DNA of 55,876 nucleotides from a bacterium (GTDB lineage Bacteria > SAR324 > NAC60-12), in assembly GCA_965233585.1 (NCBI GenBank), contig CBDDTI010000581.1:1-55876 (forward strand), in the 5' to 3' direction. Both the position numbers and the translations under genes were made by a program. The notes below the pieces were generated by a model. It did not search any database, had not been told where the DNA came from, and saw nothing but the letters and a program-made list of their open reading frames with translations. Positions 14,482-45,169 of this stretch are shown piece by piece (position 1 is the first letter of the stretch; each line of letters begins with the position of its first letter).

Positions 14482-15230
14482 ATGATAAATATAAAGCCTT
14501 ACAAACATAAAGAATATATAATTGTAAGCAGTCATCCTACGGGTATATGGTTTGTCTTCCAGCAAGGATTTTACTGAACGCTCCGTCGGGAACGGGTAAA
14601 ACGGTTGCTTTGACAAACTTGGTGTTGGACATCTACAAGGGTTGCTTTGAGAAAATCTACATTTTTTCGCCAACCATCTTCATTGATGACAACTGGACGG
14701 TTGTGAAAAAATACATTGACAAAGAAATGGACATCAAACACACGGATGAAGACCCCATTTACTTTGACACCTTTGAGGAGAAGGACTTGAAGAACGTGAT
14801 AGACACGCAGGAAGGAATAATAAAGTATATGAAGGAGAAGGATTACAAACACCTATACAACATCTGTATCATCATAGACGACTGGGCTGACAACGAAAAG
14901 GTTGTCAGGAAGAACAAGGAGTTAATCAAACTCTTCACCAAAGGTAGGCATTGGTATATCTCAACTTTTATCACATCACAATCCTACACACAAATATCGC
15001 CAGTCGTTAGGAAGAATGCCACCCAACTTTTCATCTTCAGGCTTCGTAATCAAAAAGATTTAGATGCCATTTTGGAAGAATTGAGCGGGTTGTATGACAA
15101 GAAAACTTTAGACAAGATATACCGAGTTGCCACGAATGACAGGCACGGTTTTTTATACATAGATTTGATGGAAAGCGACAAGAAGAAAATGTTTTACAAA
15201 AACCTCAATCAAAGAATTCAAGTGGAATGA
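14482..15230 (+). CDS. A32/FtsK-HerA type DNA packaging ATPase (5' end probably frameshifted)
   Basis: Walker A APSGTGKT, Walker B IIIDD, KGRH, SQ, VRKN in ORF 14547-15230. Upstream ATG at 14482 (MINIKPYKHKEY) is out of frame across an AT run. Confidence 0.93.
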
Positions 15231-15262: not shown

Positions 15263-17529
15263 ATGGCAAATTATTATAATATAAATAGGAGCGTGGAGGC
15301 ATACGAGTTTAGAACAATAGACCCAAATAACGGACAGTTAAGGAACATCCTTGACATCGCAGGAAGTGGTGGTGGAGGAGGTGGTAGTGTTGATTTAACC
15401 AATTACTATACAAAAGCGGAAACAAACAATCTTTTCACCCCTTATTATGATAGTGGTGAAGTTGATGGTTTATTCACAAGTTATTACACAAAAGTTGAGA
15501 CCGATGGTTTATTCACCCCTTACTATACAAAAGTTGAAACCGATGGTTTATTCACCCCTTACTATACAAGAGTTGAAACCGACGGTTTATTTACCCCTTA
15601 CTATACACAGACTGAAACCGATGGTTTATTAAACAATAAATTGAATGTCAGCAATCCCGAAATAACAGGCGTTTTGAAGAGCAATGACTTTGATAGTAAA
15701 AACAGTCTGTCTAACATAGTGTTTAAACATAACAATGCTATTTATTTGGAATATGATTATGATTACGATACTAACGGTGGTTTAGTTTTAGGAAAACCAT
15801 TGGCATTAGCATCAAGTTTAGATATACCATTGAATAGTAAATTACTTTTTCAACATACCGACAGTTATATAAATGAAACTTTAAACGCTGGAAACTTTTT
15901 GAATTTTGTAATGAAAGAACAGACAGGTCAAATTGACTTTTATGTAGGCGACCCCGCTACTGCTTCTAATTTAGTTATGACATTAGCAAATGATTTAATC
16001 ACATTTCATAAAACAACATCACCCGCTATTGGAGGTGGTGGTGTTGATGACACTAATTTAGTAAAATATACAGGTGAAACATTACAAACAATAGAAGGCG
16101 ATTTAGTTTTATGTGGCGGTGTTCAATTTGGAAGTTTTGACTTAACGGTTAATGGTTCTGCTTATTATAATTCAACCATAGAATTTCCATTAGGAGGTTC
16201 AATTGTTTTAGGAACTGGTAAAGGTTATATCCGTTCTATCAATATAGGAAGTGGTAATCCTGATTTGATTATTGTATTTTTGCTTCTGGTGGAATACATC
16301 GGTTTTATGTTGGTGGTCGTCCGTTTCCTCAACACTTAAAATTTCAATTGTCATTAACACAGGCATATTTTAATGTTAATGTCGTGTGCCATACTGAATT
16401 ACAAACCGATGTCATCAATACAAAAAACGCTACTGATGTTGATTTAGTCTTCAAAAGAGGCGATGTTGCATATATGAAGTTTGAAGGAACGCTACAAGCA
16501 GTGGAACTAACAAAAGGTGCTAAAGCAAACACTTATGATAGTATAGGTAATGCTGATGTTAAATTTAGAAGGAACACAATAGACTTTATGTATTTTAGAA
16601 ACGGTAATGTAGAAGTAAATACGGGTATATCATTACTTGCTGAAAGTGCTAAATTTGATGTAATTGATAGTGCCACACCTACCGATGTAGTCTTTAAAAG
16701 AGGTGGTGTAAATTTCTTTACATTAGATGGTGCTAACAGTATTATTAATGTTTCAACAGGTAGGGCGTTGTCATCTCAATATATTTATGGAGATTATTTT
16801 TACAATAGAAATTATGGTGCTGATATGGTTTTTCAAGGTAGTAATACAACAGATGACGGTTTAGTAGAATATATGAGATACAGAAAAGCAACTGAAGATG
16901 TTAATTTTTCAAAAGACGTATATGTCAATCAAGACAAAAAGGCATATTTTCATAAAGAAACAAGCAAGAATAGTTATATAGTTAATGAAAATACCGCAGG
17001 TGTTAATCATTTCAAGTTAATCAATGAAGACCCTAACGGGGACATAAGATTTTATGCTAATAGCAGTATAAGACTTTTTATTACACCATCAAAAGTTTCT
17101 GTTCCAGCACCTTATACATTAGAGGGAGACCTTGTAGATACATCACAAAAAGATAAGAAATATGATATTGAAGAAGCAAATTTCAATTTTACAAAAATAG
17201 TAAATAGCATTAAACCTCATACTTTCAAAATGAAAGAAGAAAAAGAAATGGGAATAACTAAAAGTCATATAGGTTTTATAGCAGAGGAGGTAGAAGAAAA
17301 TATACCAGAAAAAGTTGAAAATATACTCGTTGAAGTTGATGGTATTAAGAAATTAAGTTATATTAAAATGGGAAGTATCACTTGGGGAGCAGTCAGAGAA
17401 ATAATCAAAGAAAATGAAGACTTGAAAAACAAAGTTGAGCATTTAGAAACCCGCTTATTTGAAGTTGAAAACTTCATCAAAGATTTTGTCAAGCCTAAAG
17501 CAAAGGCGAAATCCAAATCAAAGAATTAA
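15263..17529 (+). pseudogene. Fibre-like protein with C-terminal S74 intramolecular chaperone, one frameshift near 16262
   Basis: N-terminal YYTKxETDGL repeats, beta-rich body, C-terminal SQKDKKYDI...IKPHTFK...HIGFIAEEVEENIPE plus coiled coil. The duplicate copy (41210 onward) reads through the frameshift. Confidence 0.82.
15403..15630 (+). repeat. 39-bp coding tandem repeat (~6 units, YYTKVETDGLFTP)
   Basis: Visible in DNA and protein. Confidence 0.9.
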
Positions 17530-17552
17530 AAATCTAAAATCATATATACACA

Positions 17553-17759
17553 ATGGGCAATTCAAACAGCAGTGTTGAAAACGACTACCTTGAACAAATC
17601 AAAAAGATAGACGAAGACGAAAAGACCCGAACAGATGTTTTACTCATCAAGAGCGTAAAAGAGTTGGTGGGAAGAGTGGAGAAACTGGAAAAGGAGAAAC
17701 AAAACAAACTGATATATCAACTACCGAAACTACAACTCTGTAATTGGAGTTTGATATGA
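17553..17759 (+). CDS. Small protein with possible N-myristoylation site
   Basis: Starts MGNSNSS (MGxxxS); conserved in the duplicate at 42672-42878. Confidence 0.6.
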   Translation: MGNSNSSVENDYLEQIKKIDEDEKTRTDVLLIKSVKELVGRVEKLEKEKQNKLIYQLPKLQLCNWSLI

Positions 17760-17791
17760 ACAATTGATAATATTATTGTTAAATAATATTA

Positions 17792-20700
17792 TTAATTGGA
17801 TAATGAGTAGTGCCCATAGGGCAGACTGTCAGTATCGTTGAACCAATACCTTTTGTTGTCATAAGATGTTAAACCGACCTTGCTTTGGTTTATACTGTAG
17901 ATTTGGTGGTTCTTACTTCTGATGGCATTGAAATTTACATTCTTTGGTATGTGTTCGTGGAGTGTTGCCTCATAGTCTTTCATATCTAAATCCCTTTTGA
18001 CTTTCAGTTTTGGAACACCCTTTGCTTTCTTTTCTGCTTTCTGTTCGTTGAAGACTTTTAGACAATACATTTTAGGACGTAAAGCAATGAAGTTTGTGAT
18101 GATTTTTCCATCCATCTCGTCCTTGAACTTGCCAAGGACTTTTTTATTAGTGGCATCATAGCAAGGGTGGTTCTTATCATAACCGCTGAAGTCCATATAA
18201 TCCTTTATTCCTTTCCAATCTTCATAGATGTCTTCGGTGAAAGTTTGTATAACATAACTGTCGGTGTCAGTATATATCAGTCTTACATCATCCTTATACT
18301 TTGCTTTTAAGACATCATAGTAGAAAGAATACATATGAACCTTTGAAAGGTCTAAAATTAACATTCCCAAATAGATAGGTTTATCCAACTTCAATACAGT
18401 TTTTGTTTTTCCCACTCCTGCCAGTTCTTCATTTATAATATGACATCCTTTGTAGTTAGGATTGTTGATACATTTTTGTATCCTCTCCTGCGTTGATACT
18501 AATTCAAAGTCAATGTGGTTTCTGACATTCTCCATCGTTTTGCCATAAACGGCGTTGTTCATCAATTTGAACATATCCTTCTCAAAGTCGCTCTTCGCTA
18601 CTTTTCTTTTTTCAGTGTTAAAATCTATCCAAGGTTTCAACCAACATCTCTGTTTGAACTTCACCCCACGATGAACTTGTTTGATTTTCATACCCTTTTG
18701 AAGGTAAAACTGTAATGCCTTGATATGGACTACATAGTTGGGTTTATCCATTTGGTTTAGGATAAGTTTTGGTTGTTTCTCATCCCGTGCCTCCTTGCCA
18801 TTATAGTAATTTCTATGTAGTTCCCTTTGGTGCTTTGAAAGTAGTTTCTCTTCAACCTTCATATTTTCAGGTGCTAATGGGTAATCCGCTTGTTCGTCCT
18901 GTATCTCCTTTGGATACTCTAAATCAACTTCCAGTATGTAGGCATTGTCATCGTTTTCATTCCAGTCCATTATCATCTTTTCTGTCAGTATCTTCTTTAT
19001 CCACTTCAGTTTTCCTATGGGCAGTTTCATTGACATTGCCAGTCCATAGAGGTTATTAGCATCTAAATAATTGATATAATTAGATGGTCTGTTTTTATCA
19101 GTCGTCCATCATATACTTATTATTTGCTTTTGCTTCCTTATGACTTACTTGACACATACCACCTCTCAAACCCTTCTCAATCATCTCATACATCTCTTGG
19201 TCAGTTAAAGGGTCTATTTCAACACCAGTTTTTAGAAGCATAGCGTCCCAAGCAAAGTTAGGAAGGGTGAAATAATGTGCTGGGTCTAAACCGTAGTATT
19301 CCAAACAAAGGTCTCTAAAATTTTCAAAGACATCAGTGAGTAAAAGAACATCGGTTCTCAAATACAAGTCGTGGTATTGACCAAGATTTCTTATACCGAA
19401 GTGTTCCCATATCCTTTGTGCCCTTTCATACTCATCATCTTCAATATGACTTTCGGTAAGATTGCTGTAAAAACTTTCTTTTGGTGGTAGTTGTTTTTCC
19501 CTAAATTTGTCAAATGAAGTGAAGTAATCATAAGGATAAACACCTTTATCAGTTAGTAAATCTAAATCCTCATCATTACTCACATAAGGGTTTCTTTTGC
19601 TAAATTTGAAGTTGTTTTGCCAGTTTTGTTTCTTCTCTCCGTCTTCATACTTACTCAACTTCACCAACTTATGAAAGAAAAACTGTCTTTGAAACAAAGA
19701 TTTTAAATGCGAATGTTATGAACTTCTCACTATTCTGTGCTATTACATCTATCTTACCCCTTTCTGATAGTTTATTTGCCCTCTCAATGATTAAATGACT
19801 GTCATAGTTCTTGAGGTTATGAAGGAAAACGGGGATTTTATAATATCTCATTGAAAACTGTAAATTACAATCATCGTGGGCACAACCCCTATACTTACCT
19901 GTAAAATGACAATGGTCTCTAACCTTTTTATCACCTTCTTTGAAGTCTTTACCACATATAAAGCATTTCTTTGCGGTTTTAAAGTCCCTCCAGTCATCTG
20001 CCCTCATAATGATTTCCTTGTTTTCCTTCATTTTTTCCATTATCTCATTTTTGACTTCAATAATCTTTTGGATAAAAACATCCATACAATCCTCCCCTCT
20101 GTGAAGGAAAGGCTTTGATGAACCATCAATTGAATTGACAACATTTATCATAAAACCGTAGGGTCTGTGATGTTGGTATTTATCAGTCTTAACTTCTTTA
20201 GTTGAAACTGTCCCCGTCCTTGTGGTTAAACATTCAAAGTCAGCATAGATGACAAAAGGTGCTTTCAACTTTTTATAGTGGTTCTTGAAAACCATAATGT
20301 CGTCTTCATTAGGCATTTCTATCTGTTGCCCTTCAACTGCCATACATCCCTTTTCATTGTGTTCATCTAAAAGTTCCTGTGATTGAAAACCCGTGTCGGC
20401 AGTGAAAACAATGATAAACTTTTGCTTTGTGTTTGTTGGTTTGGCATCCTATCAACTTGTCATAATCTTTGATGAATACATAATGGTAATCATCCCCATC
20501 CTCCAGTTTCAGAAGACTGATTTGATGAGTTGCTCTTTGAACCTTGGTCTGTCTGTAAAGTAGGATGTATTGTTTCCATTCTTCGGGGTCAATAAAATAA
20601 ACATTGACTGCTACTTTCCCTCCATTGTTTTCTTCAAATGTATCTATATCAACATCTGATGACGGAAAATTGACATTATCCCACTTCAACTCATCATTGA

Positions 20701-21688
20701 GATTTTTGTAGTGAGAAACTCTTTCGGGATGGTCTTTTTCATAAACCTTTCATATACCGCATTGAACGGAATACTTGAAACATAGTTCATCTTGATTTTT
20801 GATGTTGATACACGCTTTTTTGTTTGAAACCCATTTAGGTAATGGAATGAACTTACCCCCACGAGTTGGATTGTATTTGTCATAGTTAAACTTTATTTTG
20901 TCAATCTGGGTTATGACTAATCCACTCTCCGACATTTCCATCACCTCCGCTTGGTGCTCTACATCACTTGCCATCTGGCTCAATACGTTAGGTATTTCAC
21001 CTTCGTTGGTGATGTTGTATCTTCTACTCTTGATGACTTGTCTTACATCTTCGTTGGTCTTTTTGCTCTTCAAAGTGGCGAAGACTTATAGCATAACCTT
21101 CATTCCATTATGTTTCCTCAAATACTCTTTTAACCTCAAACCTTGGTATTTTAGATATTGTAGTGCTTTGATGCCTCTTACCCTGATGTTTGTGATGGCA
21201 TATGAATTGGCATAACCTTTGAAAGCAGACTGTTCGTTGGTGGTGGTTGCTTTGTATCTCATTTGAATACCTGTGAGTGCTTTGTTCTTGTCAAGATTGA
21301 CCCACCTAATGCCTTTCTTTTCCTTCAGTTCATACTTTTTGTAGTCCATAGTCTGCTTAATCTTGTTGAATTTTGTTATTAACCTCTTTGATATGGGTTT
21401 GCCCCTTTCAAAGTTGCAGGTCTTGTCTCCAATCTTGAGTTTCTTGAGTTCCTGTCCATTCCGTTTCAATATCTCACCCTGTTCGGATGATAAAAGATAA
21501 TCTAAAACAATCTGCTGTGAAGTGTCCATTATAGTATAATCTATATCATTATAATCTTCTGTTTCTTTAAGTAGTTTTTCAGTTTCCATTGTTTGTTGAG
21601 GATGTTGCGGTTGATTGGATTGGTTGTCAGATTGATTTTCAAAATAAAAATTTTCTGTTGAATGTTTCAACCTTGTATCCTCTGCCAT
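17792..21688 (-). pseudogene. Protein-primed family B DNA polymerase (pPolB), multiply frameshifted
   Basis: Exo motifs VIYADFEC, HNLKNYD, YLRTDV; Pol motifs YLDANNLYG, KLMNNAVYGK, YTDTDS; Zn insert VRDHCHFTGKYRGCAH. Spread over at least six ORF pieces; true start may be ATG 21529. Confidence 0.95.
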
Positions 21689-21830
21689 TTTCTCCTTAAA
21701 ATATGAAGTAATATATAGTTATTTTTTTAAGCAATTGTGGGTTCTCGTTCACTTTTTGGGTCATTGGGTTCTGGGTTGAAGTCCAACGTGAGAACACCAG
21801 AATTGAATTTGGGAAAAATGGTTTAAAGAA

Positions 21831-22343
21831 ATGGCAACTTATGGTAAATATAGGTGTAAATATAGGTATGAAAACGGAGATTTAGAAAATAACACTGGAC
21901 ACAACAAAGCCTATGTAGGGAGCACTTGCGAAAGTTTGAGTAAAAGAATTGAGAGGCATAGAGCAAAATACAGTTCTTACAAAACAGGAAAAACAAATAA
22001 GAATGTGTCAGCGATTGAAATATTTGATGAGTTTGGTATTGAAGATTGTAAGATTGAGTTGATTGAAAACTATCCCTGCAATTGTAAGGAAGAACTATTG
22101 AGACGAGAAGGGCACTACATCAAAAGCATTGATTGTGTCAATAATGTCATTCCACATAGGATGGAAGAAGAGAGAAAGGAGGTGGCGCGGGAATACTACT
22201 ACAAAAATAAAGAAAAGATATTAGAGAAACACCTTGAAAAAATGGAATGTCCTTTTTGTAAGCATGTAATGTCTCAATACTATGTTCCAATACATCAAGG
22301 GTCAAAAAACTGTGTCAAACAGACGAAAATGAATAGTGAATAA
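21831..22343 (+). pseudogene. GIY-YIG endonuclease, degenerate at N-terminus
   Basis: YVGST..LSKR..H, IELIENYPC, EELLRREGHYI, VN. The first motif reads ENGKI*KI in the duplicate copy and is indel-disrupted here. Confidence 0.8.
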
Positions 22344-22369
22344 AACGTTCTCAATAAACAGAATCGTTG

Positions 22370-22699
22370 TTATTGAGAAGGTTTCGGATTTAAACAGTGG
22401 GTTTGTTTGCTCATACATCTTTTGGTTTGACGGTGTTTTGAAAGATTGGATTTACTACTGATTACCTGTCCGCAGTCTGGGCATTGGAAGGGTTTTGATA
22501 GTTTCTTCTGATAGCATTTTGAAAAATAGTCTGGGTCTAATGGTTTCTTGTCATAATTTCCGTCAGGTTTCCATCGTGTGGTTGCTTGGGCTGGTGGGTT
22601 GTGGGGGTTGTTGGATTGGTGGAGTGCTTCAACCATTTGGTCAAAGACGTCTTCGTCCATTTTTTGCTTCTTTCCATCAATTACCATATAGCCGGGCAT
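22370..22699 (-). CDS. C2H2-type zinc finger protein
   Basis: CPDCGQVISSKSNLSKHRQTKRC. Confidence 0.75.
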   Translation of the reverse strand: MPGYMVIDGKKQKMDEDVFDQMVEALHQSNNPHNPPAQATTRWKPDGNYDKKPLDPDYFSKCYQKKLSKPFQCPDCGQVISSKSNLSKHRQTKRCMSKQTHCLNPKPSQ

Positions 22700-23923
22700 A
22701 ATTTACTTTTTATATAAGGCGACATTTCTTTAAGCGTCTTTGCTTTTTGCTTCGGGTAGTCGTTTTGGCTTAAAATAACACGTGTCCTGAATGTAGCGTA
22801 TTTGAGATTAAAAAAAGATGGTCTCAGGACACTTGTTGAAAAATGTTTTTTGTTGTCAAGTCGTCATACATTGTCGTTTTGTCCTCATCAGACTTGAGCC
22901 TTTAGCATCCCAGTCGTCTTGTATGCTATTCATAGTGGATAATCATGTGTGACCTTATATTTTAAGATGGACGGTGTGCTTTCTATCACAACCCCTTCGT
23001 TCCCCGCCCAAAAAACTAACTTTTGTATCTATGTAAAACCAAGACAAGAGAAAATCCAATTTCCTCCAAACAAATAACACATAACCTTTTTGAATCCTCG
23101 AGGAGGTCAACACTCCGCTCCTCCGCACGTTTTCTGACAGGGTGAATGCAAGCGACTGGATGCATGTATATCATCATGGTATAGGTAAATAGATGTATTG
23201 TTGTGTGAAATTACGTACTGTAAAATAGCTATAACATTGTATATGTGGTCTTTGTGTGAAACCCCCATCTCCACTTCAAACTTAAAAGTTCTATCTCAAT
23301 CCTTCTCCACTTCTACCCTTCAGAGTTCTCGCAACACACCTTTTGGATCCTTTTGGAAATCAGAGCCGATGATGACTTCATGACCTCAGATGGGCTTGTG
23401 GGATATTGAGTTGCGCTTTGAAAATGGGAGACCAAAAACATAAAATGAAGAGTTCTCGTTGTGTATGGTTGTGTTTGTCATCCTTGTCAAGTGCTGGTTG
23501 TCTCAATGTATCGGTTCAAAAACTGTCCACAGCGAAGCCAAACACCCTTTTTCCATCCTACGAAGGTCTCTGAATGTGTTGATGCCCTGTTCATTTGGCA
23601 ACGCAACACCGGCAAATCAAAAAGGGTGAACATGGCATCACTGTCTTCGGCTTTGTCAGGACACTTCTTATGCAACATTGACTTCAGAGCACCACACCGC
23701 TTTTTTGCCCCAGTCAGAAAGTCATTCAGTGACGAGGTCAATCAAGCATTCGGCACGGTTGGTCAGAACATCCCGCTGCTCCTGCAGGAAAAGTCAAGTT
23801 TCCATACGGCACTCGGGGAAAGTTGAAGTTTGGGAAAAATGAAGTTTCCCAGTGGGAAAATTCTTGAAGTTCATGGGAAAATGGGGTGGGAAGCGCTCCA
23901 CTCCAACCCTGTCCTCAAGGTGC

Positions 23924-26168
23924 TTAGTCGACATCATCACCAAGCCAAGTTAGGAGTTGTTGCAAGCCGCCTAACATGTCTCTTGCTGCCTCCTGCCACT
24001 ACTTGAGCTACTCGTGCATCCACAATGGGACTGTTGCAATTTGGAGCAAGAAGAACGCCAATTACTGATTTTACCGGCGATTCCGCGTTCTGCACCGTGT
24101 GCTTCACTGCGTTCACATTCTGGGCAAAATTTGAAGCCTTTTTCTTGCAGGTTTCTGCGTTCGTAGCTCCAGTCACATCCAAGAGCACCTGCCAAGTTAC
24201 AAAACATACAAACACATGCAAACAAAGACTGAAATGACGGAATACTGTTTGTTTGCAACACATTCAGCCTTCCAACTGAGCTCAGGACTAATTCATCTGC
24301 TTCGGTCTTGAACCAAATGTCGAAGCCTTTGTGCGTGCCAGCCGTGCCACCTTCTGAAAGCGCGTGATACATGACACCATCCTTTATGCAGCGGATACCA
24401 TCAATGCAGGGGTCTCCCTTCTTTGTGAAGACTCTTGCGTTCTTCCCATCGACTTGTTGCAATCCGTCTCGTATTTCCTTGCATTGAAACTTATATGTGC
24501 GAGGCTTGCTCTCAAATTTAAAGTCGTTCTGTTCCTTAGCCGCTTTGCAGGCAAGAGCCCACAAATAAGCTCGCTCTAAAAGCATACCGTCACACCAACT
24601 CCCAGATTCCATCAGAGATGAGCAGAATACTTCTTGGGCTTTCCTAAAGACTGACGAGGCTTTATCCCTGGCATCTCCAACTGCCATCAGCGTCTCCAGC
24701 GAAAGAGTCAGCTTCCGGTTGTCCAACGAGATCACTCCCGCATACCTTCTGTCCTCTGCCCGGGCATCTTTTATGCCCAACAACAAGTCCACTGCTCCTG
24801 AGACCTGTTCATCTAGATCTGGCAAAGCGACGCTAAAACTTCCAAGAGCTCCAATGAGCTTGCTCTCCAGGTTTCCCTCTTTGTCAAGCTGGTCCTGGAT
24901 GTTTCTGAAAGTTCTGCGCAGGTCGCTCTTCTCATCCTGCGGAATGTGGAGCTGGTCAAGACCAATGTGCACAAGGAAAAGGCTTAGCTTGACTCGCAAA
25001 GTTGCGAGCAATCGTTCTTCCTTGCCACCCCAGCCTTCGGCAGGAAGTTTGATTTTCGGCAATCCTGCTGCCGTGGCAGGTGCAGCATCTGAAGCGTCCC
25101 TGGTCAACAAGGGGCTCACATCTACTAGCATCATGGCAATTGGAAAGCGGCAAACCTGCGACGAACCCTGTGCGGCTAGATCCGGCGGTTCGAGGTAGGT
25201 GGCAATCACCTTACACATCTGTGGAAGTGAGCCAGCCAAAAGCAGCGCTCCTCGCCTGAATTCAGGAGATGTGCTCATGGAGCGGTGCTCGTCGATGTGG
25301 AGGAGAAGGCGGTTGCTGGCGTTTCTCTGCAAGAACTTGTCAACCTCCTCTGCAAATTTTGCAACTGTGGTTCGCAAGTCTGGCAGTGGACTGGGCAGCT
25401 GCCATTCAGTGCCAAGATACTCTCCATTCATCTGCCTCCTGAAGCAGTGGAGCATGAAGTCAGCACCAGCCCGCTCCAGTTCATCGGTCTCCAAGCTACG
25501 CGGCGCTGGGCTGTGACCTCGTGCAAACATGAAACACATGAACATCCCGACAGAAAGTGGACAAAGGAAAGCAAAAGGAAGCACACTTCCAATTAAAATG
25601 CAGGCTGGTTGCAATTCCAATCGTTATTGGCAAATGGCATGTAGAGGTAGTGGGTGAAACAATGCTGGCTCCCCAGTTCCACACTTCGACAGAATATCGG
25701 CAGGATGGCAGCAGACTTGCCACGCATGGTTGGAGCTGAAAGGTAAGCCACTCGGTCTCTACGTTTGTTCGCATGTTCCAAGCGGCTGACTGCGACATTT
25801 AACTCTTTACCTCTACACAAATAGGGTTGTGAGTAGAGCTTGCTGACTCCATCTGTGCCTTCTCTCACTGGTAGGGATGCTTCATAACTCTCGCATGTCT
25901 CCAGCAGCGGGATGTTTGCCGTTTTCATATTGGTCTCAAAGGCATCCTTTGTCCTCTGAGCCAAGCAATCAGTGCCACCAGGTACTTCGTTCCACCAGTT
26001 TGACGGGCGACAGCAACCGGTGGTTTTGCCCGTACCAAACCCCCGTTTCCACGGGTCAAGACCAGCAAAACCCTGCGATGAGCAAATAAAGTTGCACGCA
26101 ATCCAAAGCAGTAAGGCTCTCACAAGAAGGCATGACTGCCGACGCAATGGAACTTGACGACCCCCCAT
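23924..26168 (-). CDS. Intron-containing Crinkler/RHS-like P-loop NTPase + restriction-endonuclease-fold protein (this copy frameshifted near the C-terminus)
   Basis: Hydrophobic N-terminal leader; Walker A-like YLSAPTMRGKS; Walker B LLLHIDEH. A GT-AG intron at 24189-24288 restores GFDIWFKTEADEL|VLLDVTG; a second intron is likely at about 25520-25605. Family assignment is inference. Confidence 0.65.
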
Positions 26169-26384
26169 GGCACAGTCTGAACTTGAAACAGAATTAGTGC
26201 TACTTTGCTGCCGAACTTGAGCGCAGAGCCGGTTCCATGTCTTCTGTTTTTGATTTGCTCTTGCGCTGCTCGTTTCAACACTAGTTGTCTTGGCACAAAT
26301 TCAGAATATCCGGGCCGCCCGACATTTGAAGCGAGAAGTCGAAGACCACAAAGCCGGTGTTGAGTAGAGAAATATCCAAGACAA

Positions 26385-26726
26385 AACCATTTTCGAAAAA
26401 ACACAACAGTAACAACAAACCTCCCCCTCATCTGAAACCTAACACTGAAGTGAAAGTTCGGGCAAAAAAGTCCCCAAATCCCCATAGGAAAAAAACATCA
26501 AAGGTAAAAATGAAACATTGAACAACAACATAAAATCATAACACCCTCAACAAAACCTACCCTCATTCAATCCAAACATTATTACAACAACCTCAACAAA
26601 ACATTTAGCAAGATAATCAAAAAGAACAGTCAAACATTTCAGATTACAAGATTGAACAAAAACATAATAGCCTCCCACCTAACCTCCAACCTGTCCTGTC
26701 CTAGTTTCCCCCTTTCCCCATTTTTT
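26385..26726. repeat. Right terminal inverted repeat of the PLV (with ~140 bp extra segment)
   Basis: Inverted homology to 2273-2468; 26550-26690 has no counterpart on the left. Confidence 0.82.
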
Positions 26727-27162
26727 TCCCATGCTTCCCGCCTTGGCAGTCTAAATGCCCACCACAATTGCAGAGCTTCACGGCAGGGGTCTCATTCAGT
26801 AGCGAGTGGCCTGCACAAAACCATTTTGGATCGCAACAAAGCATGATTTTTATGGAATCGAAGGGATATTAGCCGCAAAAATTAGGATAAAATATGACAG
26901 AATGTTGTGACTACATGCACTGGGATATAATAAAAATTAACCAACAAAAGTTGTGGCATGGGTCAAAGTTGAAGGTCAAACCAAAAAATGATGGATCACC
27001 CAAGTTTCAATAGATCAATGTTTGTAAATTACTCGACATGTGGCTCTAGGTGGAACATGTGAGCAGTGTTCAAAAACCTCTGTCGTGCCCAAATTTTCTT
27101 CTTGGTAACCGGATTCCCCTGATGGATTGTGATATTCCCCATAAGAATACATACATACATAC

Positions 27163-28016: not shown

Positions 28017-28319
28017 AAAAATTAAAATGCTGCGACCGGCCGCGGTCTCCAAAATGTGATTTGTTTCGCTCAGAGCCACAATTCATCCGTGATGTTCTGC
28101 ATCCAAAACTCTCCCTGTCGCCTAACCTGACCAAACCTGACAGGTCCAAGTTTCGATGCCAGAAACAAATCCCGCAACTCCGCAATTATTTTGGCACAAA
28201 TGCGGGAGAATTCGATCTCTCTTCCACTACCACTCCTTGTGGGCAAACTAACTTCTGTCGATCTCAAATTCCACACTTAGATCTTAACACTGAATGGTTG
28301 GAACATGTGCTTATATCTC
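28017..28319. repeat. Internal A2+B1 junction repeat
   Basis: 28017-28149 matches 34983-35115 and 28149-28319 matches 27163-27334; they share the single A at 28149. Confidence 0.95.
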
Positions 28320-31295
28320 CCACCGCGTTGCACGTGTCCAACCCCGAAACCCCTCGGCGCCTTGGGTGGACAGCATGGGCCAGCAGATGTCGGCCAGCGT
28401 GACCACAATACGGGCGTTTCTGAGATTTTGTAAAATATCGAATTGATTTCGGCTGAGAGAATCTGCAATGACATTATCTTCAGAACTCACACGGTCAAGG
28501 GAAACATGAAGGTGATGACGGTGGAGATGCCACGTCAACAGTTTAGTGAACTCACTCAAAGGAAATGAAGTGGTGAAGAGCTTGTTGCCAGCTGCTAGCG
28601 AGGCATTATTGTCACTCAATGGGGCCAACTTCAGCGGAAGCCGCAAATGTCCCAGAATGCTAGCTATCAAATGCACCAACACTATTTGCGCCAACATCTC
28701 CCAGGAAGCTATGAGGGATTGAGCTGTTCGCCCTGCCACCCAATCCTGAATTGGAAAATCAGAAATATCAAAATGAAGCGCTGTCCAAAAAATCTGGGAA
28801 CTCACTGGATGCTGAAACCAAGCGCCAATGCCCACGGCCATCGCATCTGCTGCCATCGGGAACGTGGCCGTTGACGGCAGCCGAAGGTTGACCCGCAACG
28901 GGCTATGGGAAATGGCTTGCTGCAGGAAAACCACAAGCTGATGAGATCTGTCCGAGAGCTTGACCCGTTTGGAGCGCACATCAAACATCAAAATCCAGCC
29001 TGCTGTAAAGGTCCGCAAGGCGTGCAACGCTTGGGTTTTTGTTGTCACTGCAAATTGGCCCAGCTTCAGAATGCGGCAGCCCACCGAAAAGGGCGGCATG
29101 TTTACGCCAAGCGTCAAAGAGTCATCGCTGGTGACCTTTGCCAGAAAGCTTTCGACCTGCGCGCGGGTCATCCACCTTGGGGTGAGGCCACCATGTGACA
29201 AGTCCTGATATAACACGGATAGACATGGCCTGAAATAAATATAACACTGGTTCCATTGCAACAAGCCAACAAGGCGCTCCACTGTCCTTCGCAAAAGCTG
29301 TGGCCTGCGACATTCTACCAACAGTGTCTGAAGCTTGGCAAACTTGGCTGGTGGCAAAGATAAAGTCATGCTGACCAGGTCCCAATCCCAACCGAGCCAG
29401 GTAGGATGGAGTGAGGGCTTGGTTTTATGCCAGCTGATAGGAACTTTGCAAACTTGCAAATAAACTGTGGCCAAGTAAGCTTGAATGCATGCCCATTCCT
29501 GTTTGAAGAGGAAAAAGAAATCGTCGACATATATAAATGATCTGTGGTACACAAACAGGAGAATATGGATGTGTCTTTGAATCATGGCAGAAGCACGGCT
29601 CCACCAGTATGCAGAATATGTGGCGCCGAAATGGCACGTCTTGTACCGGTATGCTTTGCCTTGCCAGGTGAAGGCCGCAAGTCCTCTTTCACTGGGCTTC
29701 ACTTTGATGCATTTGTGGGCAGCTCGAATGTCCACCAGGAAACCCAGATATTGTTGCCGTTCCGGCTGCGCGCTAAAGGTCTCACGGACATCAGCCACAG
29801 TTGGGTAGAAAACCATCTCTTGGATGCTAGTGCGGGGGTTTACCCCGCTGATGGTGGTGTCTAAAACCAGACGGGGCTTGCGATTGTCGCTAAAAGCGAC
29901 GCCTAGCTTTCCAAACACAAGTTTTTGTCGCATTTCCGGGTCCAGGTCAGTGGTGAAGCCCAAGCATTCCACAAATTGGTCGTCCAGCTCCTGTTGAATA
30001 AGTTGCGCCACTATGTCGGGGTGATCTGTAGCTGACCCCCAATTGTCAAAATGAGACACCAGCTGTGAAGCCAAATCCACTGATGGTACATGTTGGATCC
30101 AAACCTGGCTTGGTGGAATGCTAGCCTGGACGCCAGTAGACACCCCATCCCGCAGCAAGGAAGGGAGCACTGCATCAACGTCCCTGGTGATCTGATTAAA
30201 TGCAGAGAAGAACTCCAATCGAAAGGGTTGATCCTGGACAACCTCCGTGCTTGGGTCAATGTTGAAATCGTGAGCAAAACGTTGAAAAATTGAAGAAAGG
30301 TCAGCTACTTCTTCTGCCGAAAGCAAGGTTTCAAAATTGGTTGGCCTGGAAATTGAAATTCTTGGTAAAATCTTGTTGCGGAGACCATATAAAAGCCATG
30401 CCCGCCGCAGGTCAGCCAAGTAGTCTGGAGCATGTGGAACTGTCCAATCGCCTGTGCTATCGACACCCCCACCATCAGCCACCATAAATTTTTTGTCGCT
30501 TGCTTTGGACGGGAACGGGAGGCGCAGCGGAAGTTCTTGCATGGCCACGCCCCATGGCGTAAGCACTGGTCCCTCTTCATGTTGAGCAAACAAAGGCCGC
30601 AAGGCCAAGGCGATTTCCAAACATAGATGTTCAGGAAAGCTAACGGATCCTGAACGGGGGTGCCGCTGAACTTGTATCGGTGGGTGCATCTCATGATGAA
30701 GGCATTGGGATTGCGTTTCAAGGAGCAAAGAACAGGTCGTGGCAACTTGCCATGATTGAACAGTAGCTTGGCCCAGCGGCACGTATTGACACTGTGCAAC
30801 TGAAATCATGTGGTGCGGGATTCGGTGGAGCCATTCGTGGAGCAACGGCTGTTGCCACGATATTGCATTGGACGGCTGTGCAAATGCCACATGCGCTCCG
30901 TTAAGAAATGCCAATTCCATCAGGGATAAAGTTCCTTGCAAAATGCTGAAACTCTCTTGATCTGGAAGGCATGGAGGTGCAACCCACATGAAAGCGAGCA
31001 AACCTGATGTTACCAGCTTTGTCAAAGCATGGAAAGTATCGCTGTCCAGGAGGTCATGAATTCTGTCTCCTAAAGAGGTGTCCAACGGTTGTAGACACTG
31101 ACATCGGAGGGATGCCACCGCTGTTGTGACTGGGTGCAGGGCACCAGAAAAAAACTCAAGGAAAAATTTGTGGCCTGGCAGTGGGGCTGGAAGCTCTCGC
31201 AAATTGCTTTGATAGGATTCGCGGTCATTGCTGGACCCACGGCACTGGCGTTCGTGAAACGAATCGCCTGACGAAGCAGACTCACTATCAGACAC
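28311..31295 (-). CDS. Reverse transcriptase-RNase H polyprotein with N-terminal degenerate C5-methyltransferase-like domain
   Basis: RT: KPRLVLD, LVDIRAAH, HFG, IYVDDFF, WLG. RNase H: AADA, WEMLA, SDN, ADSLSR. N-terminus: FLEFFSG, WVAPPC, FAQP, QCQY. Confidence 0.9.
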   Translation of the reverse strand: MSDSESASSGDSFHERQCRGSSNDRESYQSNLRELPAPLPGHKFFLEFFSGALHPVTTAVASLRCQCLQPLDTSLGDRIHDLLDSDTFHALTKLVTSGLLAFMWVAPPCLPDQESFSILQGTLSLMELAFLNGAHVAFAQPSNAISWQQPLLHEWLHRIPHHMISVAQCQYVPLGQATVQSWQVATTCSLLLETQSQCLHHEMHPPIQVQRHPRSGSVSFPEHLCLEIALALRPLFAQHEEGPVLTPWGVAMQELPLRLPFPSKASDKKFMVADGGGVDSTGDWTVPHAPDYLADLRRAWLLYGLRNKILPRISISRPTNFETLLSAEEVADLSSIFQRFAHDFNIDPSTEVVQDQPFRLEFFSAFNQITRDVDAVLPSLLRDGVSTGVQASIPPSQVWIQHVPSVDLASQLVSHFDNWGSATDHPDIVAQLIQQELDDQFVECLGFTTDLDPEMRQKLVFGKLGVAFSDNRKPRLVLDTTISGVNPRTSIQEMVFYPTVADVRETFSAQPERQQYLGFLVDIRAAHKCIKVKPSERGLAAFTWQGKAYRYKTCHFGATYSAYWWSRASAMIQRHIHILLFVYHRSFIYVDDFFFLFKQEWACIQAYLATVYLQVCKVPISWHKTKPSLHPTWLGWDWDLVSMTLSLPPAKFAKLQTLLVECRRPQLLRRTVERLVGLLQWNQCYIYFRPCLSVLYQDLSHGGLTPRWMTRAQVESFLAKVTSDDSLTLGVNMPPFSVGCRILKLGQFAVTTKTQALHALRTFTAGWILMFDVRSKRVKLSDRSHQLVVFLQQAISHSPLRVNLRLPSTATFPMAADAMAVGIGAWFQHPVSSQIFWTALHFDISDFPIQDWVAGRTAQSLIASWEMLAQIVLVHLIASILGHLRLPLKLAPLSDNNASLAAGNKLFTTSFPLSEFTKLLTWHLHRHHLHVSLDRVSSEDNVIADSLSRNQFDILQNLRNARIVVTLADICWPMLSTQGAEGFRGWTRATRWEI

Positions 31296-31331
31296 TGGGT
31301 CTGCAGCTGGCTCGTCAGGTACACGCCCGGG

Positions 31332-32639
31332 TCAAGCGTGCATAACTGGATGCTCTGAAGCTTTGTGGGGCAAATTGCAAGGACTGCCTGATGGCAGCAA
31401 GATCGGGCATCTGTGTAAGAATTTGCATTTTGGGAAATTGCACCCGGTAGTATGGAACCGTTTGCAAACTTCTTGCGAAGCACCGTCAGGGGTAATCAAA
31501 GTCTTAGCCCAGTGGTCAGGCCAAGCAGGTGCTTTCGCAGAGTCAGCTTTTCCGCCTTTGCCCTTCGTTTTGCCCTTACCAGCTGGTTTGTCATAGGGGT
31601 TCGGCCGCCAGGCCAGCTTCCCCTTGGATTTGCCACCCTTGGAAATTGAGAGGGCACGTGGCCGAGGCATGAACAAGGTTGGGATGTCGGAGCGGACTCG
31701 GCTCACTTCAAGGAGCGCTTGGTTGAGCTCCCATTGCTCAGCATTGACTAAATGAAAAATCGTTTCCCAAAGTTTCCGGTCACATTGCAAAAACTCCTGC
31801 AGGCTGGGTGGTCGCAGGCCACTCGATTCAGAGTATGTCTTTGTATAATGGTCCATGACCTTGGAATCAATTTCTTTCCATGCGCCTAGGTGCGCAATAC
31901 CTACAAGCACGTAAGCATTGCGGCGCACTTCCAAAACCCGAGACAAAAAGAAGGGGTTGCCTTGGATATCATCGAGTTCAGGGACATCTTCCACTAACGC
32001 TGAAGCAAGCAAAGCTGAGCCAGGCTTGAAGGTCTTGGAGACCTTGGCCTCCTGAGCTCGGTTCCAATTTTCTTCAGAAACCAAAGACTTCCACGGAAGC
32101 CATTCCAAGCAATTCCCCGGCTTCGTTTGGTGCACGACTTGTGACAATAAGCGCAAGCATGGTGTGTTAGAAGCCGTCAATAGCTCACCCGGATAATGCT
32201 GTCGGAATTTGGATTTCAACTGAAGGACATGTTCTGCACTGAGCTTTGGAGGTGGCAAATCTGTCCAGGCTAAACGACTTTCCAAGCTAGGGGTTTCCGA
32301 GGCCGATGGTGCTGGAGCCAAAGAAGGATTGTGAATTTGATGGAAACTATGATGCCAAAGAGCACGAATTGCCCCTGCTTGAGGTGAAATCAAGCAGGCT
32401 TCTTCGTCTTCTGGCATCCCATCGTCGGCTAGCCATTCCAAAATCTTGGTATCTAGGGCTGCCGGTGTTGAGAAGCTAAAAGCGAAAAGAGATGGTGTGG
32501 TGTATCCATGACCCGTTATTCTGTCTACCACTGCTTCTGGGACTCCACATTGGATGGCCAACTCTTTTAGATCATCCATTGGGAGCTGGGATCGGCAAGT
32601 GCAAACCCTTCTGTCACAAAAGGAATCTGAGCCGCGCAA
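31332..32639 (-). CDS. Gag-like protein with C-terminal Cys/His zinc finger
   Basis: CKRFHTTGCNFPKCKFLHRC...C...H after a KGK-rich linker; directly precedes the RT ORF. Confidence 0.78.
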   Translation of the reverse strand: MRGSDSFCDRRVCTCRSQLPMDDLKELAIQCGVPEAVVDRITGHGYTTPSLFAFSFSTPAALDTKILEWLADDGMPEDEEACLISPQAGAIRALWHHSFHQIHNPSLAPAPSASETPSLESRLAWTDLPPPKLSAEHVLQLKSKFRQHYPGELLTASNTPCLRLLSQVVHQTKPGNCLEWLPWKSLVSEENWNRAQEAKVSKTFKPGSALLASALVEDVPELDDIQGNPFFLSRVLEVRRNAYVLVGIAHLGAWKEIDSKVMDHYTKTYSESSGLRPPSLQEFLQCDRKLWETIFHLVNAEQWELNQALLEVSRVRSDIPTLFMPRPRALSISKGGKSKGKLAWRPNPYDKPAGKGKTKGKGGKADSAKAPAWPDHWAKTLITPDGASQEVCKRFHTTGCNFPKCKFLHRCPILLPSGSPCNLPHKASEHPVMHA

Positions 32640-32796
32640 GGCAATGACAGCAATTAAGCTAAGCTCAGTTTGAGGCAGGGATCAGCTTGCAGTTGAATCA
32701 ATTTACTTGTGTCGCTGCTGCAAGTCTATATCAGAATGCAACGCCTTTTTTTTCTGCTTCCGCATAGTTAACGTGGACGTTCCGAAGCACATTAAG

Positions 32797-34659
32797 CTAT
32801 TCACAGCGGCAGGCTTTATTCACACAGAGCTGATATCCTTCGGGGATATCTTCCGACTGTTGATAATATCTTCCTGGCAACGACAATAGTGCCCCGCAAG
32901 CAGGGATTGCTTTGTGATTTGCATCGAACTTGGCTCGATGCGCAGTTCGGCTAAATGAATTGAGTAAAAACATGTCGTCGTCAGATGACGATGACGAGGA
33001 TTCTGAGGAGGAACTGTCAGAATCTGAATCTGGCTGGTCATCAAAATTTACAGGTGGGCATGGTGAATCAGGAATCAAAAAGGACCACGAAAGGGGCTCC
33101 AGTCTCATGCCGAAATGCTCAGAAGGAATCGGAGGACCAGCACCTCGCAACAATGGAGTGGAAGGCTTCCACCCAGTTTGCAATCTTGCCATTATTGCAA
33201 TTTGCAAATGCACTTGCAACCACGTATCATCACGTGAATATCGAAAAGTGGAACCTTGTGGTTTATGGTGGCCTTGCTGCGCAATCCAAGACGGATCCAA
33301 CGCCAACTGATTTGCAATGGCAATCAAACCGCTTTTCAAACCGTGGACTGTGATGGCTTGGGTTGGCGTTGCCATTTGTGCTTGGGACACAAAGTACCGC
33401 AACAAATTTGTTGCTCGAACTAAACGCATTGGCCTGGCAAACATGAAGAAAGCGGGCCCTCTGATGTCTGGCACGAGAAATGTTGGGTCATAAACCTGAC
33501 CCGTGTCAGAAGACCACGTCTCCCAAAATGCTCTCAACTTAGTCAGAAACTTGCTGGCCCAGTTGACTGTGTGTGAACCCCGCAAACCACAGGTTATGGC
33601 TGCGAACGCGAAACCTTGCTTGCTATTCTTGCTTTTCCAAGCTTTGCCACGTAGCATGCCATGTTCTTCGTGCAGCGAACACAATTTGCATCGTTGGATA
33701 TCACTGAATCGCAAACCTGCATAAAACATCAAGAGAAATGCCCCGGCTAAAATACACAAAGCAGTTGGGGTCTGAGGATCATGCACGACAGTTTCCAAGA
33801 CGCTGGCAAGGAAAACGGGCGCCGGAGTAATGGACTCCGAAATGCCAATTTTTGCGGAGGAGAACAAATAACTCCGAATCAGTTCAGATTTCAACGTTTC
33901 TAATAGTTTTGGAAATCCAAAAAATTTGGCTGCCCAGGAGACGCCACGCAAGAAATTTACATACGGTGCTTTGACTGCTTTGGTGCGGTTACACAATTCT
34001 CTCAAGCAATCTGCAAACTGAGGGACTGGCACATCCGGTGGTGACCACCGGCAAGCATCACAAAATTCCACGAAACGTTTCCAAGTCTTCAAATATCTAT
34101 GTATGGTCTGGTCGGAATACACATGTAACATGTTATGCAAGTGCTCATCCGGATACGCAGAACTTTTCAACTGTTTTGCCAATTGGCTGGCATCTTGGTA
34201 GCGTGTCAAATACTCTCTGATCAATCTGACATGGTACAATCGCAAATCAGTTGATGGCGTAAAATCTGGCATCACAGTGGCAAACGGTGACCGACCCTTG
34301 GCTGGAAGCAACTTAGGCTCATGCTGAGGTTGCTCGCACCGAGACATCGGCCCTGCTCGGCATTCCAAACTGAGTGGCCTTTTTTTGGGCGATGGAAAAG
34401 AAAGACCTGCTGGTTTAGCATCTGCAAGCAAAGGAGGAACAACAATCTTATGGTTCAAACTCAAAGCGGGTGCTTTGGGCTTTGGAAATGGCAATGGTCC
34501 TCCAGCAGCTGCGTTTGTCTGCAGTTTCCGTGAAGGTGCTTTGGAAAAACTAGTGCAGGTCTGCAAGCCCAGGTTGGACTCAAAATTATGCGGGGCTGCT
34601 TTTGACATGCTGACGCCCGATCCAGAGTTTCTGCGAGCAGCCTCAAAAGGCCGAAACAA
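32797..34659 (-). CDS. Tyrosine recombinase
   Basis: AGLRFSD (R), WKSK (K), HGLK (HxxR variant), QGHH, RYSRDD (Y); C-terminal H/C cluster. Confidence 0.9.
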   Translation of the reverse strand: MFRPFEAARRNSGSGVSMSKAAPHNFESNLGLQTCTSFSKAPSRKLQTNAAAGGPLPFPKPKAPALSLNHKIVVPPLLADAKPAGLSFPSPKKRPLSLECRAGPMSRCEQPQHEPKLLPAKGRSPFATVMPDFTPSTDLRLYHVRLIREYLTRYQDASQLAKQLKSSAYPDEHLHNMLHVYSDQTIHRYLKTWKRFVEFCDACRWSPPDVPVPQFADCLRELCNRTKAVKAPYVNFLRGVSWAAKFFGFPKLLETLKSELIRSYLFSSAKIGISESITPAPVFLASVLETVVHDPQTPTALCILAGAFLLMFYAGLRFSDIQRCKLCSLHEEHGMLRGKAWKSKNSKQGFAFAAITCGLRGSHTVNWASKFLTKLRAFWETWSSDTGQVYDPTFLVPDIRGPAFFMFARPMRLVRATNLLRYFVSQAQMATPTQAITVHGLKSGLIAIANQLALDPSWIAQQGHHKPQGSTFRYSRDDTWLQVHLQIAIMARLQTGWKPSTPLLRGAGPPIPSEHFGMRLEPLSWSFLIPDSPCPPVNFDDQPDSDSDSSSSESSSSSSDDDMFLLNSFSRTAHRAKFDANHKAIPACGALLSLPGRYYQQSEDIPEGYQLCVNKACRCE

Positions 34660-34982
34660 TCATGATCAATTTTCCGTTGGCACTTTTCATTGTCATCCTC
34701 TGACCAATGAAACAGCTAAACTTGATTTATGCGTCGTTGGAAGTCAAATTGTGTTGACTAAGATCGGCCACCGAATCCATTGCTCACGCTACGGCGAGCA
34801 AAGCAGTGAAATCAAAACTATGGAATTGAATGACAGCTGCCTGTCTTCTGTGGATTTTGTCTTTTTTTTGTTTAGATGGTTGCCATGGAAAACCATGAAA
34901 AATTAGATGAAAGCCTTGTTTCAAATGCACAACCAAAAAAGCAACCGTAGCAAATGCAGTGACTGTCATGGAAGAAGGCGTT

Positions 34983-35115
34983 AAAAATTAAAATGCTGCG
35001 ACCTGCCGCGGTCTCCAAAATGTGATTTGTTTCGCTTGGAGCCACAATTCATCCGTGATGTTCTGCATCCAAAACTCTCCCTGTCGCCTAACCTGACCAA
35101 ACCTGACAGGTCCAA
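34983..35115. repeat. Split direct repeat A1
   Basis: 133-bp match to 28017-28149 with about 3 mismatches. Confidence 0.95.
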
Positions 35116-40382: not shown

Positions 40383-41209
40383 AAACGCTTCTGTGCCGTG
40401 CTTGAACTTTCCAACACCATGTTCTGGAAATGGCAGTTTGACACCAATGTCAGCAGCCTTTCCGGAAGAACCTCCTCGGTGGTAGCTGCGGGCAGTTGCA
40501 CGAATGCTTCCGGCGAAGTGGCTGCAGCAAAACCTGTCGTGCTTTCGATGGGTCGCTGCATTGTTGCTGAAGGAAAAAAGTCAAGAACTGTTAAGAGCCC
40601 ACAAGAAATTGATAAGAGTGATGTGAAGAACAAAAAAGGAAAACAGAAGAAGGCCAACTGTTTGAGTTGGAATGAGTGGAGAAAAGTGAGAAAAAAGAAA
40701 GTTAGTCCGACGAAGAGTCCTTGTGACCATTTTGAGACGCGGACTAAGGATGACATGGGCCTGAGCTGGTTTTGGTTTGGGGTAGGTTTGGTTTGTGGTT
40801 TGGTTCCCCCCTTGGTTTTCCTCCTTTTTTGGGGTTCTCACTCCGCGCCTTGGCCTGCAACTAAAACCGGCCCCTTGGGCCTCCCGGGTCCCGATTGTAC
40901 TGGGGCAGCAACCATGGCCGAAGAGTCGTCGTTGCTGCTTTGGTGCAAGCGCTGTGCTGCGCTGACGAATGGTGCTGCTGCTACAGCACTTGGTTCTTGG
41001 ATGTGGGACTTGACTGCAAAACTTGGCTCACTTTTGGAAGTCCCAAAGAGGTTTTTTGACGTTGAAAAGGAAACTTCTGTCATTAAAGCTTCTCGTTTTT
41101 GTGGAAACAGAAGGATCAAAAAACCTAGAAAAGGGTGGAAACGACGTTTGAAACTCAGATGTAAGCCATGTCTGAATACTTCACTCTCTCCTTGTTATAC
41201 TGGCCAGCC

Positions 41210-42648: not shown

Positions 42649-42671
42649 AAATCTAAAATCATATATACACA

Positions 42672-45130: not shown

Positions 45131-45169
45131 TTAGGCCGAGGGTGGTGCCGGCGGGGAGTCACGAAACGT

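Follow-up and report, generated by a model that had tools for sequence, protein, structure and literature searches.

Introduction

In nematode Mavericks, a region of 2-5 kb between the terminal inverted repeat (TIR) and the core genes is described as having a higher GC content and containing intron-bearing genes, and Widen et al. read it as host-derived cargo exchanged between species (10.1101/2022.07.12.499685). Dinoflagellates are reported to harbour endogenous polinton-like virus (PLV) and polinton-like elements in abundance (PMC10120064; PMC11957031), and most introner insertions into the viral elements of these hosts were judged to be post-integration events (PMC11957031). For the Crinkler/RHS-type (CR) effectors, whose definitions are taken here from a review (PMC5289972), the combination of an NTPase, a helix-turn-helix (HTH) and a restriction endonuclease-type (REase) domain is given as the commonest C-terminus, and NTPase-REase pairs are linked in the same review to prokaryotic transposable elements. 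The present work concerns a stretch of 55,876 nucleotides (positions 1 to 55,876 of contig CBDDTI010000581.1, assembly GCA_965233585.1; hereafter the window), in which an AT-richer, virus-like element holds, beside its right TIR, a GC-richer block of 3.3 kb with a spliced gene for an NTPase with a nuclease-like C-terminal part.

With moderate confidence, we read this block as the cargo slot of an endogenous polinton/Maverick-like element in a Cladocopium-like genome. Cargo is favoured because the block agrees with the description of the Maverick region, both in its position between TIR and core and in its higher GC content and intron-bearing gene, and because its junction with the TIR recurs in other sequences. 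As in the nematode elements described by Widen et al., a block of a few kilobases lies between one TIR and the core genes, its GC content is above that of the core, an intron-bearing gene stands among intronless viral genes, and the element encodes an rve-type integrase, a protein-primed polymerase B (pPolB) and a packaging ATPase. The locus differs in its dinoflagellate host, in the nature of the gene, which encodes an NTPase with a nuclease-like part and not the ubiquitin-like-headed protease or kinase reported from nematodes, and in the placement of the slot, which is at the opposite end from the integrase (integrase at 6029-6970, cargo at 23-26 kb). With the dinoflagellate PLVs it shares an AT-richer, TIR-bounded and multi-copy character and the entry of host mobile DNA; where the published accounts of those elements treat introners and core genes (PMC10120064; PMC11957031), the present element has an intron-bearing, protein-coding gene at its terminus as probable cargo.

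According to this reading, the slot would hold a single gene of nuclear type. Of its two spliceosomal introns, one has a GC donor in the style of dinoflagellates. The gene would have been taken from the host gene pool, or have long evolved there, and now lies between the core genes and the right TIR. Its product would comprise a poorly ordered leader with a hydrophobic stretch, a STAND/AAA+ NTPase with a helical extension and a nuclease-like C-terminus. This architecture points to genetic conflict, in which an NTP-switched nuclease would act on DNA as a toxin, an exclusion factor or a defence of the element or of the host. A role in integration is unlikely because the element encodes its own integrase.

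Should the gene truly travel with the element, the Maverick cargo-slot pattern would extend from nematodes to dinoflagellate endogenous viruses, and intron-bearing nuclear genes would have a route between coral symbionts. The broader proposition that dinoflagellate polinton/Maverick-like viruses regularly carry an NTP-switched nuclease of Crinkler-RHS-type architecture as terminal cargo, serving as a toxin, exclusion or defence weapon, is doubtful. If it were true, it would parallel the ubiquitin-like-headed proteases and kinases of nematode Mavericks, and virus-like transposons would be general vehicles of conflict effectors across eukaryotes, with which the family spreads. The literature searched gave no description of this protein family or of such cargo in dinoflagellate elements, and nothing that links Crinkler-type proteins to dinoflagellates or NTPase-nuclease cargo to polinton-like viruses.

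The viral element

The element is bounded by TIRs and spans about 2273-26727 of the window (24.5 kb). Its inner TIR arms (2317-2472 and 26553-26397) are 78% identical and its outer ones (2273-2304 and 26727-26696) agree in 27 of 31 positions; some 135 nt between the inner and outer parts of the right arm (26554-26689) are not found in the left arm. Immediately beyond each terminus lies the pentanucleotide CCCAT, in the same orientation on the two sides, which makes it a candidate for the 5-bp target-site duplication (TSD) of the whole element. The following features define it.

2273-2472, no strand: left TIR, preceded by CCCAT at 2268-2272
6029-6970: IS481/rve-like integrase (NCBIfam match, 2.7e-12)
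14547-15227: Pox_A32-type packaging ATPase (profile match, 4.2e-11)
19101-19715: pPolB fragment (match, 1.2e-6)
26397-26727, no strand: right TIR (inner part 26397-26553, outer part 26696-26727), followed by CCCAT at 26728-26732

Further domains found in the element are a DNA methyltransferase, Endonuclease VII, GIY-YIG, a C2H2 finger and a Peptidase_S74 fibre domain. No helicase or primase could be recognized by domain scans of the element, scans for Rfam families and tRNAs gave no hits, and the packaging ATPase had no match among phage records. Except that no capsid gene was identified, the element is a polinton/Maverick-like or PLV-like provirus. The window itself is read as Symbiodiniaceae (Cladocopium-like) genome DNA, since the nearest named relatives of the NTPase gene are those of Cladocopium goreaui, Symbiodinium necroappetens and Effrenium voratum.

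On the minus strand, six consecutive open reading frames (ORFs) of 438, 205, 259, 128, 111 and 210 aa occupy 17792-21718 and include a DNA_pol_B_2 fragment and the Endonuclease VII domain; the chain has the look of a polymerase gene that was broken up or invaded. Close to the left terminus, within the element, tandem arrays (3254-4236 and 4488-4864) overlap listed ORF frames; they are built of a 42/84-nt unit, a CTAT-rich 12-20-nt unit (33-56 copies) and AAAAGCAG (42 copies).

The spliced NTPase gene

Because the TIRs and their CCCAT flanks enclose it, the gene is placed inside the element, with the last viral ORFs on one side of it and the right TIR on the other. An earlier note, made from the letters of the window, had proposed this position, together with a GC content above that of the viral ORFs and a spliced gene with a leader, Walker A and B motifs and a nuclease-like motif restored by splicing; all of these claims were borne out, and the junction named there, 24189-24288, runs exactly from GT to AG. 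The gene model is as follows.

23937-26168, minus: NTPase/nuclease-like gene, copy 1 (ATG at 26168-26166, stop at 23939-23937; three exons, 678 aa when spliced)
25613-26168, minus: exon 1, with a hydrophobic N-terminal leader, a conserved SLPVRE block, Walker A (APTMRGKS) and FTHYLYMPFANN
25518-25612, minus: intron 1, 95 nt, GC donor, AG acceptor followed by G
24289-25517, minus: exon 2, with Walker B (LLLHIDEH), a sensor-like Thr, a conserved Arg (VCRFP), a helical region and the first half of the nuclease-like domain (LLERAY ... HKGFDIWF)
24189-24288, minus: intron 2, 100 nt, GT..AG followed by G
23937-24188, minus: exon 3, with VLLDVTG...K...GVLLAP and a tail that is frameshifted in this copy

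Removal of intron 2 fuses ...FDIWFKTEADEL to VLLDVTGATN... With both introns removed, the 678-aa product can be aligned along its entire length with P0012, a database protein of 687 aa (65.5% over 673 columns). The intron 1 junction, NNDWN/CHSPAP (the slash marking the splice point), agrees with the database gene models P0012, P0013 and P0038. A family hidden Markov model (HMM), which is a profile from 32 distant members, was run against the whole window; its coordinates are continuous over the three reading frames (18-145, 156-543 and 541-620), and only three frames per gene copy were matched, with no further family copy in the window. The unspliced ORFs of the paralogues P0008, P0011, P0014, P0017, P0018, P0021 and P0023-25 diverge from the consensus at the point of intron 2. 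Since paralogues as diverged as these (60-82% identical among those that share the intron position) break from the consensus there, this intron is taken to be old within the family. Introns of the GC/GA-AG type, to which the GC donor of intron 1 may be compared, are reported as common in dinoflagellate genomes (PMC7789003).

The gene has a GC content of 0.49-0.52 and a third-position value (GC3) of 0.47-0.56, against 0.35-0.44 for most viral ORFs; the neighbouring retroelement ORF has a GC content of 0.51. A relic of the dinoflagellate spliced leader, sought with up to three mismatches, was not found.

The junction between terminal repeat and gene

The right edge of the block holds the nonamer CCAAGACAA (26376-26384, plus strand), which lies 13-21 nt inward from the inner boundary of the right TIR. 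Five out of seven candidate database ORFs are collinear with the window from the TIR through this 9-mer into the 5' flank of the gene. These five relatives are 82-94% identical to it and stand for clusters of 58, 9, 3, 1 and 1 member sequences. One of them, P0201, runs on through the outer TIR, and no counterpart of its first 43 residues exists in the window, which suggests that it represents a copy inserted elsewhere.

The protein family

Close relatives of the protein number 39, all of the Symbiodiniaceae type, with 396 member sequences. More widely, 260 family representatives, typically of 600-700 aa, were found at E ≤ 1e-3 in a library clustered at 50% identity, and the family is eukaryote-wide and undescribed, with no Pfam, NCBIfam or PADLOC match. 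The analysis thus flags a conserved eukaryotic family that would combine a STAND-like NTPase with a probable nuclease. P0012 itself had no Pfam match at E ≤ 10, no NCBIfam match and no match among PDB sequences; no Pfam family reached curated level in any of 90 representatives, and PADLOC gave nothing consistent. Among 32 members scanned with Pfam at E ≤ 10, AAA_16 was matched weakly by three and AAA_22, AAA_19, nSTAND1 and DEAD by one each, and no nuclease, Crinkler (PF20147) or RHSP (PF07999) family was matched.

Across the full-length members (n = 67), invariance is high both in the NTPase, at G149 (62/62), K150 (61/62), D265 and E266 (66/67 each) and R313 (66/67), and in the C-terminal part, at E506 (65/67), D591 (62/65), D/E605 (63/65) and K618 (58/64). 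Residues H263, H267, T296 and H587 are also nearly invariant, and all of the nearly invariant residues are retained in both copies in the window. The N-terminal extensions that precede the SLPVR block vary, being strongly hydrophobic, basic and hydroxyl-rich with no acidic residues, or absent. This variety suggests lineage-specific targeting, by signal peptide- or presequence-like leaders, to the secretory route or to organelles.

In prokaryotic genomes, two out of 51 pattern matches were confirmed, both on tiny contigs of metagenome-assembled genomes that offer no useful context. One is a 2-kb contig that consists almost entirely of a single intronless 587-aa homologue (L001, 131-1894). On the other, which apart from this looks prokaryotic, a 75-aa family fragment lies at the contig end (L002, 2521-2745); both are probably stray or chimeric eukaryotic sequence.

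Structure prediction and comparison with known NTPases

An AlphaFold2 model of P0012, based on a 67-sequence alignment, has a mean pLDDT of 83.7 and a pTM of 0.84; residues 1-65, which contain a hydrophobic stretch, are disordered (pLDDT below 50). A whole-chain Foldseek search against the PDB returned nine matches at E ≤ 0.001. CED-4 ranked first (4.6e-5, probability 1.00, about 320-430 columns), and lower in the ranking stood Cdc48/p97, PCH-2, ORC subunits, NRC resistosomes, Avs3, RdrA, BrxC and TnsC; the TM-scores of the structural matches are low (0.20-0.37). The Walker A GK[ST] and Walker B hhhhDE patterns and the fold match to solved members characterize the front part, at the level of the modelled fold, as a CED-4/ORC-like STAND/AAA+ P-loop NTPase with a helical extension. 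In common with STAND/ORC-type AAA+ proteins (CED-4, ORC, plant NRC, bacterial Avs and RdrA), it displays Walker A, Walker B, a sensor-like Thr and a conserved Arg. It differs from them in having no family match at the sequence level and no repeat or sensor domains, and in that its effector part is a small C-terminal nuclease-like domain.

The core of PD-(D/E)xK nucleases has the order alpha-beta-beta-beta-alpha-beta, with E, D and (D/E)xK as its residues. In the model, the C-terminal elements follow one another as helix 504-519 (with E506), strands 573-576, 592-595 (after D591) and 600-606 (with D605), helix 612-633 (with K618) and strand 640-647. Where the third motif would have its Lys, members have Thr, Gly, Ala or Ser, and a Lys 13 residues further on is conserved in 58/64 members. 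The domain is consistent with a PD-(D/E)xK nuclease in which, as we infer, the Lys has shifted to the next helix.

The label 'Crinkler/RHS-like', under which the earlier note had placed the gene, is a fair description of the architecture and was not backed by any profile relation. Like the CR effectors as defined in PMC5289972, the protein has a variable N-terminus, then a P-loop NTPase and a helical region, and REase-type acidic residues in its C-terminal domain; in the model, a helical region follows the NTPase, and no HTH was identified in this region. The links to Crinkler and RHSP proteins are confined to language-model neighbours, which include a cluster named Crinkler (0.90), in which 45% of members have PF20147, and one (0.85) with RHSP in 14%. 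CR effectors are marked by an N-terminal header, either the ubiquitin-like LxLFLAK/Crinkler header or another of the CR type. Here the N-terminus is a hydrophobic or disordered leader, and none of the 32 scanned members matched the Crinkler header or RHSP profile. The resemblance is one of architecture only, and the protein is not filed as a CR effector because the defining header and profile relation were tested and not found.

Duplication and divergence of the two copies

The window contains a second copy of the gene and its surroundings: 41210-55876 duplicates 16093-26804 with 96-99% identity, the match running to the end of the window. The duplication extends past the right terminus by 71 bp, over which the copies are identical, and therefore represents one segmental duplication and not two integrations. 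The second gene copy has the following structure.

52939-55240, minus: NTPase gene, copy 2 (exons 54685-55240, 53303-54570 and 52939-53202), with an intact 695-aa spliced ORF

It contains an in-frame 27-bp duplication and a 12-bp insertion. In copy 1, the conserved tail AARD.LGGLQQLLTWLGDDVD has been lost to the frameshift caused by a 2-bp deletion near 23989 (compare P0007 and P0012), and the family HMM match ends at position 605, against 620 in copy 2. Divergence between the copies is about 11% in 25472-26101 (compared with 54513-55173) and about 1.2% over most of the remaining length. The divergent tract has sharp edges inside exon 2 and exon 1, with a dS of 0.18 and a dN of 0.057 (first 200 codons), and is a probable gene-conversion patch from a third, selected paralogue.

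A satellite block of 3.9 kb (44722-48595), present only in copy 2 (equivalent position in copy 1, 19598), sits within the ORF of the pPolB fragment and is made up of a 16-nt unit, GTCTGTGTGTAAAAGC (165 copies), a 72-nt unit (8 copies) and an array of the 8-nt CATCTTCA. A 575-aa open frame with no Pfam match (40347-42074, plus strand) spans position 41210, where the copy 2 match begins; the sequence upstream of this breakpoint may be another version of a fibre-like gene rather than unrelated DNA.

Cargo or later passenger

Several observations weigh against a virus-borne nuclease gene. As regards carriage, the two gene copies of the window derive from one duplication and are not independent, no capsid gene was identified by the domain scans or by a PDB-sequence search of four large ORFs, and the five junction relatives, having been picked by junction similarity, are a biased sample that could represent orthologous loci in other strains. 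Moreover, cargo acquired before integration and host DNA that entered an endogenous element and was then amplified cannot be told apart. As regards function, the copies differ outside the N-terminal tract by 17.5 nonsynonymous and 1.5 synonymous changes since the duplication, so that these sequences give no visible sign of constraint on the gene over that time, and the skewed substitutions and the frameshift of copy 1 mean that these copies may be non-functional. As regards the nuclease, position 607 holds T in 36 members, G in 14, A in 7 and S in 4, the canonical (D/E)xK Lys being absent; no sequence or profile tie to a nuclease family emerged when the exons, P0012 and the family profiles were searched against Pfam, PADLOC, NCBIfam and PDB sequences; and among the listed whole-chain Foldseek matches (PDB and BFVD), in which the NTPase dominates the ranking, none is named a nuclease. 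The broken polB region, the frameshift in copy 1 and the lack of visible purifying selection since the duplication further suggest that the element is decaying in the window.

The most serious alternative, which we hold to be possible but a good deal less likely than carriage by the virus, is that a host gene copy with its flanks entered the decaying endogenous element after integration, by ectopic recombination or repair, was copied only by host segmental duplication and was never carried in a virion. The host-like composition and introns of the gene are compatible with such a passenger, as are the degradation of the element (short minus-strand ORFs around the pPolB fragment, TIR arms of 78% identity and the satellite of copy 2), the segmental nature of the duplication and the gene-conversion-like tract, which shows exchange with other paralogues. 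The judgement in PMC11957031 that introner insertions in dinoflagellate viral elements were mostly post-integration points the same way. These observations have to be set against the presence of the TIR-to-gene junction in five further sequence clusters, one of which has a different sequence past the terminus, and against the place of the gene beside the TIR, which matches the Maverick cargo slot as described by Widen et al.

A possible gene of the virus itself

That the gene belongs to the virus, as an ORC/Cdc6-like initiator or a genome-processing NTPase-nuclease which gained host composition and introns during long residence, is quite improbable. ORC subunits and replication-type AAA+ proteins are indeed among the structural neighbours, weak matches in BFVD include AAA-type and uncharacterized giant-virus proteins, and a helicase or primase was not recognized in the element. 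However, a tblastn search with P0012 gave no match in 50,697 phage or 72,556 plasmid records, a single BFVD match reached E ≤ 0.001, and alignment with the A32 ATPase of the element involves the P-loop alone (19 columns, probability 14%). Furthermore, the intron positions are common to diverged paralogues, members of the family occur widely in eukaryote data and vary in their N-terminal leaders, and the pPolB fragment represents the element's own replication gene.

The ends of the block

The earlier note had seen the block bracketed by a 9-mer and had offered two readings, a self-mobile NTPase-REase unit that makes 9-bp TSDs or effector cargo carried by the virus. The 9-mer CCAAGACAA was found at all four positions named there (23039, 26376, 52054 and 55448, plus strand) and also on the minus strand at 26285 and 55357. 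Because copy 2 duplicates 16093-26804, the second coordinate pair (52054 and 55448) is not independent. Besides the right 9-mer already given, two features mark the left edge.

23003-23012, plus: CCCGCCCAAA, inverted partner of 2482-2491
23039-23047, plus: left CCAAGACAA, at chance level as a bracket

Of 247 control pairs, each made of a 401-nt and a 301-nt window at a distance of 3.3 kb, 113 have an exact 9-mer in common, and the supposed 9-bp TSD is for this reason no evidence of insertion. The block ends have no TIRs, as the earlier note had stated (inverted alignment score 14, equalled or exceeded in 369 of 400 controls), and the change in GC content at the left edge is gradual. A spurious ORF spans the right 9-mer, which is conserved as the codons FCLG in all five junction relatives, and the minus-strand 9-mer at 26285 arises from a 6-bp CCAAGA insertion that is missing from all five.

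The reported match of CCCGCCCAAA near 23003 to the inner left TIR region was also recovered, with a partner at 2482 on the minus strand and a further plus-strand occurrence at 52018. An exact 10-mer is shared by 76 of 5000 control pieces, which makes the pair nominally unusual in a test that is post hoc. Around it there was no TIR-like alignment, and a relic or continued TIR sought to the left of the block gave scores of 20 and 25, which 82 and 24 of 300 controls, respectively, also attained. At most, CCCGCCCAAA may be an old sub-terminal motif at the inner edge of the cargo slot.

The least probable explanation is that the block transposed into the element as a self-mobile unit: the 9-mer at both proposed ends in both copies, the published tie of NTPase-REase pairs to prokaryotic transposable elements (PMC5289972), TnsC among the weak structural neighbours (rank 45, E 3.2e-3) and the hint of an old sub-terminal region given by the inverted CCCGCCCAAA pair are outweighed by the chance level of the 9-mer, block ends devoid of TIRs, five of five relatives homologous straight through the right 9-mer, the lack of any other family copy in the window, the ordinary nature of family members elsewhere (genes of 600-700 aa, many with targeting-type leaders) and the possession by the element of its own integrase. 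As between the two readings of the earlier note, it is the cargo that fits the data best.

Other features of the window

To the right of the element, a retroelement-like unit of about 7 kb occupies 28017-35115 on the minus strand. It contains a 1006-aa ORF (28314-31331) with a weak RVT_1 match (2.1e-4) and two more long ORFs, and it has 133-bp direct repeats (28017-28149 and 34983-35115) that are 97.7% identical. It adjoins a 9-nt satellite, TACATACAT, of 119 copies (35116-36201), beyond which repeats of 23-31 nt, TTTGGGAATTTTTGTCCCCAAC, occur in both orientations at 36274-36714 and form long imperfect palindromes.

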